A stretch of DNA of 64,000 bases from Alphaproteobacteria bacterium. Lineage in GTDB: Bacteria; Pseudomonadota; Alphaproteobacteria; Bin95. How positions within the stretch are numbered: the stretch's first letter is position 1; every line of letters begins with the position of its first letter. Position numbers and translations under genes: made by a program. This document shows, piece by piece, positions 8,885 to 38,380 of the stretch. The stretch is taken from NCBI GenBank assembly GCA_964291285.2, contig OZ219785.1:352001-416000 (forward strand), written 5' to 3'. The notes beneath the pieces were generated by a model. The model did no database searches and had not been told where the DNA came from. It saw only the letters and a list, made by a program, of their open reading frames with translations.

Positions 8885-9495
8885 CATTTCCACGAAACAT
8901 GAAATATTTCCAATATTTTTGACTTCTGTTCGTGTTTTGATCTTGACATCTGGCGGATTGTGATATGATGGTCCCCAGGGAAGCGGACTCCGGAGCCGCG
9001 TCCCCGGGTGCCGCGCGGCCGAGCGACGCCGGTTTCTGAAAACCCGTGAGAAGCCGACGGGAGACGTGCGTCCTGCGTCTCGCGCGCGCAATCAGGCGCG
9101 CGAACCGCGCCGGCGCCGACACGCGCCCGGGCAGGCGCGGGCGCCCGCGCAGGATACGCGCGGAAAAGGGACCCCCTCCCCGTCGGAGAAGAGAGGAGAG
9201 ACGATGACCGCAACCGACCCCCAACTGGCCGCGATGCCGGCCGAAAAGCTGGCACCCGCCGCAGAGGCCCTTGCCAGCGCCTATGCGGAGGATAGGAGCG
9301 CAGCGCCGGCGGGTGGCAGCGCATGCTCCTCTTCCGCCCGGCGGGGGAGGAGGTCGAAGAGCGGAAAGCCCCATGCCCGAAACGGCTACAGCATATGAAC
9401 CCTGCGCATGCAGAACATGACATCTCATGACATATCGGAACACATGGCGAAGGAGGCCGGGCGCGCCTCATGACAAAACATGACATCCCATGACA
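8885..9495 (+). repeat. Dispersed element copy A (promoter, conserved leader 9059-9170, RBS + 64-aa ORF 9204-9398, CATGACA arrays)
   Basis: Shares GCGCAATCAGGCGCGCGA core and flanks with 23990-24110 and 37455-37577; CATGACA at 9416, 9426, 9469, 9479, 9489. Confidence 0.8.
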
Positions 9496-9579: not shown

Positions 9580-9654
9580 GACCCCATCGTCTAGAGGTTA
9601 GGACACCACCCTTTCAAGGTGGAGACACGGGTTCGATCCCCGTTGGGGTCACCA
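9580..9654 (+). tRNA. tRNA-Glu (anticodon TTC)
   Basis: GACCCCA/TGGGGTC acceptor stem, CCACC-CTTTCAA-GGTGG anticodon arm, GTTCGATC T-loop, encoded CCA; TTGCCA-17-TATCCC promoter upstream. Confidence 0.96.
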
Positions 9655-23744: not shown

Positions 23745-24260
23745 TGTCATGAGATGTCATGGTTTACCGTGAAGGCCTGCGGGACACCACGCGATATGTC
23801 ATGAAATGTCATGTTTTGCATGCGCATCGAGCATGTCCCACGGCTGAATCAGGCATGAGGTGGTCGTTTCGGGCGGAGCGTCCGGGTATTCCATCCCGTT
23901 TCCCGGGTTCTGCATCTTCGGCATCGGCTTCTCCTCTCGATCCATCTTCGTTCCAATGTTCCTGCCGCTGGCTCTTCAAGGCGGCGGGACCCTAATTCGC
24001 GCGTAATGTGCGCGGGCGCCCGCGCCTGCCCGTGCACGTTCCGCGGCGGCGCGAATCGCGCGCCTGATTGCGCCTGCGCGCGCGAGGCCGAACACAGGGC
24101 ACACGTCTCCTGCCCGCTGCCAAGGGTCTCCTGGCACCGGCATGGAAGACGAAGCAGCCTCCGGATGCCGCTTTCTTCCTCCTGTCCCATACTATCATGG
24201 ATTTCCGGGGATTTGCTCTTATCAGAGAAATAATTCTGGATTAGTGAACAAAAACACTTC
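23745..24260 (-). repeat. Dispersed element copy B (leader 23990-24110, RBS + 41-aa ORF 23799-23924, CATGACA arrays)
   Basis: TGTCATG at 23745, 23755, 23797, 23807; GCGCATGCAAAACATGACATTTCATGACATATCG nearly identical to copy A. Confidence 0.78.
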
Positions 24261-35335: not shown

Positions 35336-36292
35336 ATGAATTCCCTGAACGCCATTCGCCTGTTCACCGCCTCCGTCGATGCCGGCAGCTTCTCCGAGGT
35401 AGGGCGCCGGCTCGGCATGGCGCCTTCCTCGGTGTCGCGGCAGGTCGCGGCGCTGGAGGACAGCGTGGGCGCCCAGCTCATTCACCGCACCACCCGCAAG
35501 CTCAGCCTGACGGAGGCCGGGCGGCTCTATTTCGAGCGCGTCTCGCGCATCCTGGCGGCGCTCGACGAGGCGTCCGCCGCCGTCTCGCATCTGGAGGAGT
35601 CGCCGCGCGGCGTGCTGCATGTCAACGGACCCACGGCCTTCGGCGTCCGCCATGTCGCCCCGGCGCTCCCGGACTTCCTTGCGCGTTATCCGGAAGTGCG
35701 GATCGAGCTCACGCTCACCGACAATTTCGTGGACCTTCTGGAAGTGGGCGCCGATGTCGCCGTGCGCGTGGGCGAGCTCGAGGACTCGAGCCTGATCGCG
35801 CGCCGGCTCGCGCCCAACCGGCGCGTCCTCTGCGCCAGCCCCGGCTATCTGGCCAAGGCCGGATCGCCGGATCGCCCGCAGGACCTCGCGGACCACAATT
35901 GCCTCGTCTATACGCGCCACCACGGCAGTGTGAACTGGAACCTCGGCGGCCCGGACGGGCTCGCGGAAGTGCGCGTCGGCGGCAATCTGCGCACCAACAA
36001 CACCGAGGCGGTCCATGCCGCGGCGCTCGGCGGGCTCGGCATCGCGCTCCTGCCCTCCTGGCTGGTGGGGCAGGAGGTGCAGTCCGGCCGGCTCGTCGAA
36101 GTGCTGCCCGGCTACCGGGCCGCGCCCGGCGCGCTCGACACCGGCATCCACGCCCTCTACCCCGCCGACCGCCACCTCTCCACCAAGGTCCGCGCCTTCG
36201 TGGATTTCATGGTGGAACGTTTCGGCCCCCGCCCCTACTGGGAGGAGACGCCGGAGGGCAGCGCCGGACCGGATCCCCGGATGGCGCGCTGA
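35336..36292 (+). CDS. LysR family transcriptional regulator
   Basis: GSFSEVGRRL..SSVSRQVAALE..LIHRTTRKLSLTEAG; substrate-binding domain. Confidence 0.94.
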   Translation: MNSLNAIRLFTASVDAGSFSEVGRRLGMAPSSVSRQVAALEDSVGAQLIHRTTRKLSLTEAGRLYFERVSRILAALDEASAAVSHLEESPRGVLHVNGPTAFGVRHVAPALPDFLARYPEVRIELTLTDNFVDLLEVGADVAVRVGELEDSSLIARRLAPNRRVLCASPGYLAKAGSPDRPQDLADHNCLVYTRHHGSVNWNLGGPDGLAEVRVGGNLRTNNTEAVHAAALGGLGIALLPSWLVGQEVQSGRLVEVLPGYRAAPGALDTGIHALYPADRHLSTKVRAFVDFMVERFGPRPYWEETPEGSAGPDPRMAR

Positions 36293-36390
36293 AAACCGCG
36301 CGCCCGCGTCCGGAATCCCGGCCTGGCGAGGGCGGCCCAAGGCCGGCCGCCGCCGCAGGCAGCGCGGCGCGGCCGCGGACACCTGCGGAA

Positions 36391-37715
36391 TGTCATGAAG
36401 TGTCATGTTTTGTCATGGTCGGGGGCGGAACCGGCGTCCTCCGGGCCGGTCCTCCGCTTCTTCCCCTTCTTCTTTTTCTGCTTCTTCCTCCTCGCCGCCG
36501 GTCCGCTCCAATCGTCGTCTTCGTCGCCGCCCCGCTCTTCCCGTTCGAGGCGGCTCTGCCTGCGTTCCTCGACCTCCTCCGGGGCCCAGGGGTCGTAGAT
36601 GTCGTCGTAGCCGTTGCGGCGCTGGTATAGCCAGTCATGTTCGGCGCCGTCGGCCCGGTCGTCGTCGGTGCTGTCCTCGTGGCCGGGCGTGTCGGCGGCG
36701 GCCCACGGGCAGTCTTCGTAGGTCTCCTCCGGCGGGTCGTCGGCCGGCGGCAGGTCGTTTGCCGGCGCGGGCGGGGGGCCGAAGCCGACGGGCAGGCGGG
36801 AGCGCTCCTCGACGGCCGCGGCGAGCCTGCGGGCGGCCTCCTCATGCGCGGCCCCGTCGAAGCCCTCCTGCGCCTCCATCTCCTCGCGCCGCTCGCGGTG
36901 GCGGGCGAGCGCCCTCTCGGCCCGGTCCCGCCCCCGGCGCACGGCGTCTGCGAGCGGTCCGGGTTCGGTGCCGGTCTCCTGCGCCTCGCCCGCCTCGATC
37001 TCGCCGAACTCGTCCTCGTGCGGCAGCGGCCAGAGCCGGGCGCGGTTCGCGCCGGCCGGACTGACAAGCCCGGCGACCTCGGCCTGGAAGCGCAGTACCC
37101 GAAGCATCATGTAAGCCGAGCCGCTGGCGACGGCGGCGTCCCAGGCCTGCTCCGAGCGGGCGAGCAGGATGCGGGCCTCGTCGCGTTCGGTGCGCTTCCA
37201 GGACAGGCGGATGCGGCGCACGCGCTCAACGATGTAGGGCCGCTCCAGCAGGGCGCATCCGGTCTGCCTTGCGGAGCGCTCGGCATAGCCGGCCTGCCTT
37301 GCGGCGTCTGCGGCATTGCCGGAGGCGGTGTAGTGGCGGCAGAAGGCCTCCTGGCGGGTGGAAAGCGCGACGGCGGGGTCGATGACGGGCATGGTGTGCG
37401 GCTCCTTTGGTTCCGCTTCGGTTCGACGGCCATGCCGCCCCGGCATCGGAGCGACCCTTATCCGCGCGTATCCTGCGCGCGCCTGTGCCGGCGCGGGCGG
37501 GTGTCGGCGCCGGCGCGGTTCGCGCGCCTGATTGCGCGGGCGCGAGGCAGGCACAGGACGCACCTCGCCTGTCGGCTGAATCGGGGTCGTTCCGCACCGG
37601 GCCGGCGCGGGCGGGAAGCGGTCCGCGCGGACTTCGCTCACCTCGGACCCATTGTAGCACATTTTCCTAAAATGCAAGTCATGTTCTAGAATTTTTTCAA
37701 AATATGCGAACAAAC
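36391..37715 (-). repeat. Dispersed element copy C (longest; carries terminase-small-subunit-like gene)
   Basis: Leader 37455-37577 matches copies A and B; TGTCATG at 36391, 36401, 36411; TTGCAT-15-TACAAT promoter with extended -10. Confidence 0.8.
36403..37392 (-). CDS. Terminase small subunit-like HTH protein with acidic/basic low-complexity tail (329 aa)
   Basis: LSTRQEAFCRHY..SGNAADAARQAGYAERSARQTGCALLERPYI resembles the Terminase_2 N-terminus; AAGGAG RBS. Confidence 0.75.
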   Translation of the reverse strand: MPVIDPAVALSTRQEAFCRHYTASGNAADAARQAGYAERSARQTGCALLERPYIVERVRRIRLSWKRTERDEARILLARSEQAWDAAVASGSAYMMLRVLRFQAEVAGLVSPAGANRARLWPLPHEDEFGEIEAGEAQETGTEPGPLADAVRRGRDRAERALARHRERREEMEAQEGFDGAAHEEAARRLAAAVEERSRLPVGFGPPPAPANDLPPADDPPEETYEDCPWAAADTPGHEDSTDDDRADGAEHDWLYQRRNGYDDIYDPWAPEEVEERRQSRLEREERGGDEDDDWSGPAARRKKQKKKKGKKRRTGPEDAGSAPDHDKT

Positions 37716-37810
37716 AGTCGGCAAGCCCTCCCGTCTCCCCACCGGCCGCCACCTCTCCACCGAGGTCCGGGCTTTCGTCGATCTGCCGGTCGAACGCTGC
37801 GGTCCCGTCC

Positions 37811-38380
37811 CTACCGGGAAGACCCGCCGAAGGGCGCCGCAGACGCATCCCCGGTGCGTTGAAAGTCGGCCGCCTGCATCCCGTATCTCAGCACTTCCAG
37901 TCCGAAGGCGCGGACGAGGCCGGGGCCGCGTCTCATGCCGAGGCGCTCCAGCACCGCGATGGAGGAGGCGTTTTCCGGCAGGACGAAGGCCGCAATCTCC
38001 GGCAGCGCCAGCCTGTCGAACCCGTATGCCAGCGCGGCGCGCCCGCCTTCGGTCGCATAGCCCCGTCCCTGGACCGCGGGGTCGATCAGGAAGAGGAGCT
38101 CGGTCTCGCCGAACTCCGGCAGGCGCCTAAGGCCCAGATGCCCGACAAGGCGGCCCGAGGCGCGTTCGACGACCGCCCAGGGGCCGTAGCCATCCTGGTT
38201 CCACGCCTCGCGGAACGCCGCAAGCGTCGCATCGGACCGGCGCGCGGCTTCGGCCGCGTCCTCCGTATGGCTCGGCAGGAAGCGCGTCACGCCGGGCTTG
38301 CCCCGTATCGCCCGGTAGGCCGGCCCGTCGCCCTCCTCGAAGGGCCGCAGCAGCAGGCGGCCGGTATCCATCCGGGTCAT
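37811..38380 (-). CDS. GNAT family N-acetyltransferase (RimJ/RimL-like)
   Basis: TGRLLLRP, QGRGYATE, NASSIAVLERLGM. Confidence 0.88.
   Translation of the reverse strand: MTRMDTGRLLLRPFEEGDGPAYRAIRGKPGVTRFLPSHTEDAAEAARRSDATLAAFREAWNQDGYGPWAVVERASGRLVGHLGLRRLPEFGETELLFLIDPAVQGRGYATEGGRAALAYGFDRLALPEIAAFVLPENASSIAVLERLGMRRGPGLVRAFGLEVLRYGMQAADFQRTGDASAAPFGGSSR

Follow-up and report, generated by a model that had tools for sequence, protein, structure and literature searches.

A multicopy small-terminase-like gene ending in phased CATGACA heptamers in Alphaproteobacteria

Few dispersed repeats in bacteria have, to our knowledge, a known protein partner, the main example being REP sequences with RAYT. 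Phage satellites of the SaPI/PICI type bring a small terminase of their own within 5–20 kb of DNA that also carries integrase, replication and regulatory genes, and they are found once per genome. REP/BIME sequences are described as intergenic mosaic repeats that number more than 100 per genome and are associated with a single protein family (PMC3333891, PMC2817692) and as sites at which IS elements insert (PMC1525189). The pac site of phage P1 is described in PMC10028697 as direct repeats (HEX4 and HEX3) that lie inside pacA and are bound by packaging proteins, and the SPP1 pac region, in the description of PMC4737164, has repeats in or near its gene, as does the element studied here.

Within a 64-kb stretch of DNA (the whole of the sequence analysed, hereafter the window) we examined an ORF of 329 aa on the minus strand (36403..37392) that runs into three CATGACA heptamers with an exact 10-bp period (36391..36417, minus strand; heptamers at 36391-36397, 36401-36407 and 36411-36417). 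The first-pass annotation had described the gene as ending in phased repeats, and this holds: the stop codon TGA falls within the second heptamer, the final codons (..PDHDKT*) come from the array and, as read off the sequence, three repeats put TGA (and ATG) into all three frames. We lean, by a little, towards a lineage-specific family of intergenic repeats, dispersed through the genome, of which this gene is the coding member. If borne out, the element would be a second, unrelated repeat–protein pairing, in which a phage-type DNA-recognition domain, with no catalytic part visible, is matched with a 7-bp word occurring once per DNA turn. REP/BIME units are palindromic whereas the units here are direct heptamers with a 10-bp period, and RAYT has a Y1 domain whereas the element protein has an HTH without HUH or Y1 and is itself multicopy. 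Like SaPI/PICI satellites, the element encodes a TerS-like protein outside a phage, and would share SOS-linked induction if its LexA box works, but it is about 1.3 kb long, has a single ORF and occurs in tens to hundreds of copies. In having non-autonomous derivatives with both ends retained, the element recalls IS/MITE families, from which it differs in showing neither terminal inverted repeats nor an encoded transposase. A full-text literature search by topic, on small terminases and repeats in sponge symbionts, found no published account.

The annotated N-terminal motif (LSTRQEAFCRHY..GNAADAARQAGY..SARQTG), acidic low-complexity sequence through the middle and the C-terminal part, and the RRKKQKKKKGKKRR tail are all present in the translated ORF. 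A small-terminase-type HTH at about residues 11-74 leads into long helices (residues 52-106), and a conserved core extends as far as residue ~200; the acidic C-terminal part varies between homologs, which do not keep the basic tail. The Pfam profile Terminase_2, against which a search had been suggested, matches residues 11-74 (E 1.4e-11, 45.6 bits, cut-off 26.1), spanning profile positions 2-65 of 141 only. PHROG 51 (terminase small subunit) also matches the protein (E 1.1e-12), a profile of 24 homologs found the SF6 G1P DNA-binding domain in the PDB (E 2e-6), and two homologs bear the NCBI name 'terminase small subunit'. In an AF2 model, pLDDT is 79-93 over residues 11-100 and helices are confident at residues 52-90 and 93-106, with low confidence past residue 110. 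Its top Foldseek matches were SF6 small terminase structures (3zqq, 4zc3): the DNA-binding domain aligned to 4ZC3 with a TM of 0.85 (rmsd 1.6 Å, 39% identity, 56 columns), whereas full-length 3zqq_C aligned over 125 columns at a TM of only 0.38. DSSP assigned helices only and no strands of a C-terminal beta-barrel, in a model of low confidence past residue 110. The HTH is the sole Pfam match and the model is all-helical and otherwise disordered, with no catalytic domain; the homolog search, which is weak evidence on this point, found no longer fused forms of residues 1-205. The annotated likeness to small terminases is thus borne out for the N-terminal HTH by Pfam, the PDB profile and Foldseek, and nothing beyond the HTH was matched. 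Residues 55-205 fall with unnamed viral clusters in the Protein Atlas (score 0.91), one of them with 11% Terminase_2, which we regard as a lead only.

The nearest characterised protein is therefore G1P of SPP1/SF6 (Terminase_2; PDB 3ZQQ, 4ZC3, 2CMP), which the element protein resembles in its N-terminal HTH; long helices follow, placed as at the start of the oligomerisation domain in G1P. It differs from G1P in having over twice the length, an acidic disordered tail and no predicted beta barrel, and its gene is multicopy and chromosomal, has no adjoining large terminase, and is found in Alphaproteobacteria MAGs, not phage genomes. Small terminases of this type form rings of 8–11 subunits through a central helical domain. 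In small-terminase rings, adjacent HTH motifs are placed about one B-DNA turn apart in the Discussion of PMC4737164, a spacing that matches the 10-bp period of the arrays. We give slightly better than even chances to a protein that binds the phased heptamers ending its own element, probably as an oligomer with its HTHs one DNA turn apart. The heptamers would then serve as a cis-acting site for maintenance or spread of the element, and the step in which DNA is copied or moved would not be encoded in the element but supplied by the host, another mobile element or a phage. By analogy, the behaviour of the closest solved relative counts against binding of the arrays, as the SF6 DNA-binding domain is described in PMC4737164 as binding DNA weakly, with no sequence preference and little effect of repeat boxes. 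The same account of non-specific binding weakens the premise of the first-pass annotation that small terminases of the SPP1 type read repeat boxes. Element and protein nevertheless form a clean, testable protein–site pair.

The window contains 14 CATGACA words where 3.5 would be expected, a count reached in none of 100 shuffles, and the phased pair CATGACA-N3-CATGACA occurs seven times against 0.15 expected. Across the whole genome the heptamer count is 901, with 50 in the reversed control; there are 122 arrays, with 252 of 325 within-array spacings exactly 10 bp. Bipartite 2+3 arrays are common in the genome. Arrays that often hold 2+3 heptamers and overlap the gene end are reminiscent of P1 pac; P1, however, carries a single pac site in each phage genome, its hexamers are Dam-methylated and it has a partner, PacB, whereas here there are about 120 arrays in a bacterial genome and no partner gene. 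By eye, short GC hairpins were seen only between the halves of some arrays. Array midpoints are mostly intergenic, with 34 of 122 lying in gene calls, themselves crude and approximate, against about 99 for random positions.

The element is present many times in its own genome. Protein-level searches gave 18 matches, comprising 10 that cover at least 298 of the 329 residues and eight N-terminal fragments. Eight copies have 329 codons, all intact, and these paralogs share 93–97% nucleotide identity while each has its own flanks; dN/dS among them is 0.25, and purifying selection is acting on the element copies. The ten near-full copies have common 1.3-kb limits, and copy-to-copy homology (at least 93% identity) stops 0–4 nt past the last heptamer in 12 of 15 pairs. 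The gene had been called an orphan, which is right in that it has no phage neighbours and wrong in that it is one of these ten near-full copies. Since gene and array belong to a multicopy dispersed element, the best fit among the annotation's proposals is its alternative one, a mobilisation or regulatory protein of the element. That the ORFs might instead be leftover terS genes of decayed prophages, with the repeats a coincidence, is extremely improbable and already contradicted by the multicopy and selection data. The NCBI names and the phage-like HTH would suit such remnants; the shared 1.3-kb limits of ten copies, the lack of any other phage gene by the window copy, the intact ORFs with their dN/dS, and arrays that are far above chance and conserved across species would not.

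A further ~110 shorter, ORF-less derivatives in the genome keep the leader and the arrays, and the leader lies upstream on the same strand for 94 of 122 arrays. Derivatives retain the 5′ and 3′ modules while their interiors are unrelated or deleted. The window contains two. One (8890..9495, plus strand) comprises an AT-rich 5′ region, a leader (9052-9170), a decayed small ORF and arrays at 9416-9432 and 9469-9495, and sits just upstream of tRNA-Glu (9580-9654); the other (23745..24260, minus strand) has a leader at 23982-24119 and arrays at 23797-23813 and 23745-23761. We considered the arrays at 9416-9495 and 23745-23813 as inverted ends of one 14-kb transposon and rejected this, because each array set is part of its own short unit with its own leader.

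Read in gene sense, a full unit of about 1.3 kb passes from an AT-rich promoter-like region through a GC-rich leader of about 250 nt and a LexA-type box with the ribosome-binding site to the ORF, and closes in a sharp 3′ end of CATGACA heptamers, one per helical turn. The AT-rich 5′ region (37640..37713, minus strand) has promoter-like hexamers (TTGCAT at 37677-37672 and TGnTACAAT ending at 37651); a consensus scan for promoters and terminators made no call anywhere in the element, this region included. The 5′ limit of copy-to-copy homology is ragged and lies inside this region, and a MAFFT alignment of 156 upstream regions had too many gaps for the 5′ end to be placed. The conserved GC-rich leader (37447..37577, minus strand) is common to the short derivatives; the segment has 94 blastn hits in the genome, and its core CGCAATCAGGCGCGCG occurs 156 times with up to two mismatches. 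Folding of the leader as RNA gave z = -2.1. In a local RNAalifold analysis of 65 distinct copies, two short helices emerged in which G-U changes were one-sided and two-sided compensatory changes almost absent (one of the 65 sequences, at one pair), a result neither for nor against a structured RNA. Rfam returned a chance snoRNA match only over 36200-37900 (E up to 1).

Directly before the Shine-Dalgarno sequence AAGGAG, 18–32 nt upstream of the ATG, is a GAAC-N7-GAAC box (GAACCGAAGCGGAAC; 37410..37424, minus strand), a candidate LexA (SOS) operator. The LexA motif of Caulobacter is of this type according to Table 1 of PMC9578287, and a perfect box lies upstream of the genome's own lexA. The box was found by eye in all ten copies of the genome and stands at the same position in 17 of 23 homologous loci, the exact form being missing from the other six; genome-wide the motif shows modest enrichment (111 against 69 for the control). 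On these grounds the element is probably under SOS control, and we give about even chances to the fuller scheme in which LexA would repress expression and DNA damage would release it. The distance of about 230 nt between the promoter-like region and the box downstream of it, in this genus, counts against the SOS part.

The association between gene and array extends well beyond this genome. In 30 of 36 homologous loci, phased heptamers either overlap the stop codon or come after it, and at distant loci (45–60% identity) a same-strand array is present in 15 of 15 and an opposite-strand array in none. These distant homologs are from other uncultured Alphaproteobacteria MAGs, one record being named from a sponge. 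ORF and array stay next to each other in homologs as distant as 45% identity, across six or more genome lineages, whereas the leader is not conserved. Among 37 genomes of the order, the 13 gene-positive ones have 139–384 phased pairs each, and of the 24 gene-negative ones 23 have 0–6 and one (G008) has 48 with no detectable gene; genomes of one genus are kin, hence these counts are not independent. Five outside genomes with distant homologs have 87–163 phased pairs, against 0–1 in controls. Taken as sequence comparison, this gives strong comparative support to a functional link between gene and array. The arrays of G008, together with the location of most arrays in ORF-less units, indicate that arrays can persist without the gene in cis.

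Such persistence would also be expected if the arrays and leader formed a MITE-like or BIME-like family whose movement or upkeep depends on another factor, for instance a host protein or a transposase from a different locus, with the ORF a cargo in a minority of units that does not act on the arrays. We regard this as unlikely. In its favour, besides the ~110 ORF-less units and G008, 22 of the 192 termini of an IS3-family element lie exactly 6 nt away from a heptamer, similar to the use of REP/BIME sequences as IS targets, so other mobile-element machinery does recognise the arrays; the ORF also lacks a catalytic domain and, on the weak evidence above, fused longer forms. Against it are the adjacency of ORF and array across lineages in which the leader is not conserved, the background level of arrays in 23 of 24 gene-negative genomes, and the purifying selection on the ORF in all eight intact copies. 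The Y1/RAYT transposase profile PF01797 had no matches in the genome (the control was positive in 6 of 14 genomes), and the only transposases recurring near arrays, IS3-like and IS1634-like, look like separate insertions.

Filled and empty sites could be compared between genomes. The site of one copy (C4:533089) is an empty spacer of 19–54 bp in three other genomes (G009, G002, G021), and the tRNA-Glu site of the first short derivative is empty in G007, whereas in G002 it is occupied by a lone array of three heptamers. At the locus of the window copy, the LysR and GNAT genes of relatives flank a different gene, about 250 codons long; the junction is therefore unreadable and the locus does not represent a clean insertion. 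In alignments inspected by eye, the insert ends had no terminal inverted repeats, an AT-rich 5′ region facing direct heptamers at the 3′ side. Two filled-versus-empty comparisons showed extra unique DNA in the inserts and at most 2–3 shared bases at the junction, and neither a clear target duplication nor a crisp 5′ end was found at the sites compared. With these features absent and extra unique DNA present at two sites, classical transposition is not established; gene conversion could be the source of part of the copy-to-copy similarity.

Units present or absent at orthologous sites also bear on whether the protein is a phage-derived host transcription factor or nucleoid-associated protein for which the arrays are chromosomal operators. 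An HTH protein, intergenic arrays, gene–array co-occurrence and purifying selection are what such a regulator would lead one to expect, but we hold it to be very improbable, given also the eight intact paralogs, 93–97% identical, in separate flanks, the patchiness of the gene within the genus (13 of 17 genomes) and its absence from two sister genera. The arrays, moreover, mark where units end on the 3′ side, and relative to the following gene their orientation is not clearly biased (70 co-oriented versus 52).

As the first-pass annotation had noted, phage genes are not found nearby: no large terminase, portal or capsid gene occurs in the 64-kb window, and the neighbours at 30–44 kb appear by eye to be ordinary metabolic and regulatory genes. 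The annotation had further proposed a dispersed packaging-initiation factor, of GTA or transduction-hijacking kind, and a search for large terminases and GTA loci elsewhere. That search went against it. PF03237 and PF03354 match nothing in the whole genome (a Caulobacter control was positive for PF03237), PF05065 and PF04860 each match one island only, on another contig, and the genome's single large terminase, which is found in only five of 17 genomes of the genus, is in a sporadic phage-like island, also on another contig (contig 2, about 83–92 kb). There was no RcGTA-type conserved head–tail cluster with a large terminase across the lineage, nor a conserved large terminase or viral homolog accompanying the element; IMG/VR held no close homolog, with three remote matches at 34% identity to the HTH only. 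A working small terminase that, upon SOS or phage induction, binds the arrays, with these acting as pac sites, and brings in a large terminase is quite unlikely. In such a system the large terminase would be resident or come from an infecting phage, host DNA and element would be packaged from about 120 entry points, and the element would be a minimal satellite or transduction-hijacking element. The TerS-type HTH and helices, the array period that equals the HTH spacing in TerS rings as given in PMC4737164, the two repeat groups that P1 pac likewise has in pacA in the description of PMC10028697 (many arrays here being 2+3), the sharp 3′ boundary at the last heptamer, the SOS-type box, and the position of the nearest element copy about 13 kb from the only large terminase would all be consistent with packaging. 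They are set against a large terminase in 5 of 17 genus genomes but the element gene in 13, the profile and IMG/VR results above, a Pfam match confined to the first 65 of 141 positions with no C-terminal barrel strands in the model, and the multiplication of copies within the genome, which packaging itself does not explain. If true, packaging would bear on gene transfer inside sponge microbiomes, and the element may offer a route for the reuse of phage packaging parts outside phages.

A bolder version, which we consider decidedly improbable, is a ~1.3-kb 'pac cassette', a selfish, SOS-controlled small-terminase-like binder with its own recognition array. The ~120 arrays would make a co-resident or infecting pac-type phage or phage-like island a vehicle that packages host DNA from the arrays; by this route the cassette would pass from one sponge symbiont to another, making the arrays hot spots for transduction and recombination. 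Such an element would be the smallest phage satellite known, and would generate generalised transduction as a built-in property. In four DNA runs, one of them labelled a viral metagenome, the contigs were fragmented at the element, with summed contig depth in one run (X1) of ~126,000 at the leader core against ~430 in the flanks, and the virome-run contigs held only diverged pieces of the element and lacked the left flank (36250-36357). As contigs cannot reveal DNA ends, these data are silent on packaging.

Returning to the repeat family, the element could serve as a marker of genome expansion in this sponge-symbiont lineage. Array-rich genomes are 3.5–6.1 Mb in size, and four gene-free genomes are 3.4–3.9 Mb.

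The terminase-like gene spans 329 codons in an open frame on the minus strand (window 36403-37392), encoding an N-terminal part that reads ...LSTRQEAFCRHYTASGNAADAARQAGYAERSARQTGCALLERP..., then an acidic, proline-rich stretch and the tail ARRKKQKKKKGKKRR...PDHDKT. Its final codons and stop fall within three minus-strand CATGACA heptamers (36411-36417, 36401-36407 and 36391-36397) at exact 10-bp spacing; the motif, acidic low-complexity part, tail and phased repeats described in the first-pass annotation were all seen here. CATGACA repeats are above chance in the window, with 14 occurrences versus 3.5 expected (14 was reached in 0 of 100 shuffles) and seven phased pairs, two heptamers at a 10-bp period, versus 0.15 expected. 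The neighbours, read by eye from translations, look ordinary and include a LysR-type regulator, acetyltransferase-like and dehydrogenase-like genes and a large FAD/Fe-S oxidase-like ORF. The earlier description of an "orphan" gene therefore fits its surroundings, but not a single gene, since the same genome (6.1 Mb in five contigs, 68% G+C) holds 18 matches to the protein. Across the element from the LysR-type gene, window 37737-37887 resembles the 3' end of that gene at 36160-36317 (73% identity). In three related genomes (G006, G007, G012) the LysR and acetyltransferase genes are instead separated by an unrelated ORF of ~250 codons, hence this locus has undergone rearrangement rather than a simple insertion.

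The protein is predicted to be a small-terminase-type DNA binder. Its sole Pfam match was Terminase_2 (E 1.4e-11, above the curated cut-off), spanning residues 11-74, or profile positions 2-65 of 141, so the suspected similarity to this profile is present in the N-terminal helix-turn-helix (HTH) part only. PHROGs placed the same part in terminase small subunit families, and a 24-homolog profile searched against the PDB matched the SF6 G1P DNA-binding domain (E 2e-6). An AlphaFold2 model made from the 24-homolog alignment is confident over residues 11-100, with an HTH (12-49), a long helix (52-90) and a further helix (93-106), followed by two helical hairpins at moderate confidence; the remainder is disordered and no beta strands were modelled. 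The top Foldseek matches of the model were to the SF6 small terminase, closely for the DNA-binding domain (4zc3, TM 0.85, rmsd 1.6 Å, 39% identity) and loosely, over 125 aligned columns, for the full-length protein (3zqq). Neither Pfam nor the model gave any sign of a C-terminal barrel or catalytic domain. Across homologs the first ~200 residues are strongly conserved, with 57 invariant columns, and variation is concentrated in the C-terminal third, basic tail included. In a distant clade (L072, L074, L081, L083, L087 and relatives) phased heptamer pairs also occur inside the coding region, ~600-650 nt into the ORF, where they encode in-frame repeated ..(T/N)(E/N)PD(I/N)SLH.. peptides, hence the variable C-terminal part seems to have grown by array read-through.

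Of the 18 matches in this genome, ten are near full length (≥298 of 329 residues, 82-100% identity); the other eight are confined to the N-terminal part. All eight 329-codon copies are intact, with a mean dN of 0.024, a mean dS of 0.094 and a ratio of 0.25 that is alike in N-terminal and C-terminal parts. The repeated DNA unit runs from the heptamers (36391) to ~37678-37713; at over 100 other sites, similarity is limited to ~130 bp in the upstream leader (37447-37577). CATGACA occurs 901 times in the genome, versus 50 for the reversed control word, and forms 122 arrays of at least two heptamers, with exact 10-bp periodicity in 252 of 325 within-array spacings. The leader lies upstream on the same strand in 94 of the 122 arrays, at 90 to ~2250 bp, clustering at ~1030-1090 bp in ORF-bearing units. 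What units have in common is a 5' module, made up of the AT-rich region and the leader, together with the 3' arrays; interiors hold the terminase-like ORF, deletion remnants of it or other short sequence. Two short units lie in the window, one directly before tRNA-Glu (~8890-9495, plus strand) and one at ~24260-23745 (minus strand). In unit pairs of at least 93% identity, homology stops 0-4 nt past the last heptamer in 12 of 15 cases (11, 11 and 54 nt in the others), and the 5' limit in alignments is ragged, around the promoter-like region.

The arrays are frequently bipartite (2+3), the halves being parted by a short GC-rich hairpin-like spacer seen by eye. Read from the sequence, three heptamers at a 10-bp period supply TGA and ATG in all three frames, hence unrelated ORFs in units end in ..HD(K/I)(T/S)*. 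The arrays tend to lie outside genes: by a crude home-made gene call, 34 of 122 array midpoints fell within predicted genes, versus ~99 at random (minimum 86 in 200 draws), and the downstream gene was co-oriented in 70 cases and opposed in 52. Many short units, including window 9205-9396 and its paralogues, contain a small ORF with a common start (MTATDPQLAAMPAERLAPAA...), preceded by a good Shine-Dalgarno. This ORF is decayed, frameshifts breaking most copies, and may be what is left of a second cargo gene in the family. The leader core CGCAATCAGGCGCGCG (within 37447-37577) is found at 156 places genome-wide with up to two mismatches, outnumbering the clustered arrays, and in one sequencing run (X1) its summed contig depth was ~290 times that of unique flanks. 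It had no Rfam family match, and covariation neither favours nor disfavours a structured RNA.

Among 8,000 candidates scored, 340 proteins were homologous at E ≤1e-3, and two of 120 homologs listed bore the name "terminase small subunit". Species-representative genomes gave 118 homologous loci, 80 of which were kept, several copies per genome, and all 80 come from MAGs of uncultured Alphaproteobacteria or Rhodospirillaceae, one of which takes its name from a sponge (Spongia); runs containing element DNA include sponge metagenomes by their labels. The family is confined to a few uncultured alphaproteobacterial lineages, with labels pointing to sponges. Of 36 loci read, 30 have phased heptamers that cover the stop codon or come directly after it, the exceptions being two disrupted copies (L061, L079), L041, L073, and L076 and L077, with arrays ~105 and 280 nt further on. 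In distant loci (45-60% identity), whose leader is short and quite different, a phased pair lies on the gene strand in 15 of 15 and on the other strand in none. Within the genus (17 genomes) the gene is found in precisely the 13 array-rich genomes, with 103-319 exact phased pairs, and in none of the other four (G003, 0; G023, 0; G001, 1; G008, 23; controls 0). In the order (37 genomes, three genera) only these 13 carry the gene (0 of 10 in each of two sister genera), and a relaxed pattern gave 139-384 pairs in them, 0-6 in 23 of 24 others and 48 in G008. Five genomes of other lineages with distant homologs hold 87-163 pairs (controls 0-1). Although these genomes are kin and their counts not independent, such a pattern over at least six lineages is difficult to account for without a functional tie between gene and arrays. 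The four gene-free genomes are among the smallest (3.4-3.9 Mb) and array-rich ones are as large as 5-6 Mb; in this lineage, genome expansion and repeat load may go together.

Units turn over at orthologous sites. The site of one full copy (C4:533089-534376, on contig 4 near 532900-534560) is a 19-54 bp spacer in three relatives (G009, G002, G021), contains the element in G006 and holds other, toxin-antitoxin-like inserts in G005 and G012. By eye, these two-gene inserts are a nucleotidyltransferase/HEPN-like pair in G005 (L116) and a HicAB-like pair in G012 (L123); the spacer, filled differently in different species, is a hot spot for mobile DNA of several kinds. The site upstream of tRNA-Glu is empty in G007, a solo three-heptamer array in G002 and a whole short unit in the window. 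Inserts at both sites include extra DNA absent from every other copy; no inverted ends were seen at the junctions, shared bases numbered at most 2-3, and no clean transposition signature was found at these two filled/empty sites.

The window copy has a GAAC-N7-GAAC box at 37410-37424, 18-32 nt upstream of its ATG. The box is present by eye in all ten copies of this genome and in 17 of 23 homologous loci of both clades, always adjoining the ribosome-binding site; across 143 kb of these loci, all but one of 18 boxes are at that position. Read on the other strand it equals the Caulobacter SOS box, GTTCN7GTTC, as listed in Table 1 of PMC9578287. The genome's own lexA has a perfect box ~60-70 nt upstream and its recA a 7-of-8 version (by eye), and genome-wide enrichment is modest (111 versus 69 for the reversed control). 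With moderate confidence, we infer LexA control of the terminase-like gene. The box directly follows a promoter-like -10 in the distant clade and lies ~230 nt downstream of the promoter-like region in this genus.

A bold minority reading, raised in the first-pass annotation, is that the protein acts as a dispersed packaging factor. Adjacent HTH motifs in small-terminase rings lie about one B-DNA turn apart, and DNA may wrap the ring (PMC4737164), a spacing that favours the idea, as does the P1 pac site, likewise grouped short repeats, seven hexamers in two groups inside pacA (PMC10028697). PMC4737164 also describes weak, non-specific binding by the SF6 DNA-binding domain, with repeat boxes mattering little. 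PF03237 and PF03354 detect no terminase in the genome, and its sole large terminase (PHROG 9, E 1e-48), of a type found in five of 17 genus genomes, once merely as a fragment, lies on contig 2 in a small phage-like island (~83,000-92,400; L109 11333-18390, minus strand) with a D5-type primase C-terminus, capsid/prohead protease and portal, and with no recognised small terminase gene beside it. IMG/VR likewise gave only three matches, HTH-only at 34% identity. One element copy lies ~13 kb from the island terminase, a few-percent coincidence for ten copies in 6.1 Mb. The proposed search for TerL or GTA loci elsewhere thus yielded one TerL but no conserved head cluster, and membership of a GTA was rejected for want of the latter.

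The initial observation was hence confirmed and extended, its interpretation supported only in part: the element is a new variety of dispersed repeat-plus-protein system on a phage small-terminase DNA-binding domain. It is closest in working to REP/BIME, being a dispersed repeat family with a dedicated protein and used as an IS target. REP/BIME-RAYT membership was rejected, however, as the repeats here are direct, the protein is of the HTH type and the genome has no Y1 transposase. A classical IS or MITE (no terminal inverted repeats, no transposase) and a phage satellite (one ORF, 1.3 kb) were also rejected.

In E. coli, IS1397 targets REP units, and an abundant IS3-family element here seems to target the heptamer arrays in a similar way. 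A 13-nt end motif matches 192 of its termini in the genome, and one IS end lies exactly 6 nt after a CATGAC heptamer at 22 of these and 7 nt at two more; examples outside the window are on contig 2 near 1256575-1256640 and 1109840-1109910. Arrays also repeatedly have IS1634-like transposase genes nearby (17 ORFs no more than 2.5 kb away). Several families of interspersed repeats abound in this genome, and a second abundant repeat, starting GGTGGAGAGGACGG, occurs at 238 places, often after arrays (11 within 16 nt).
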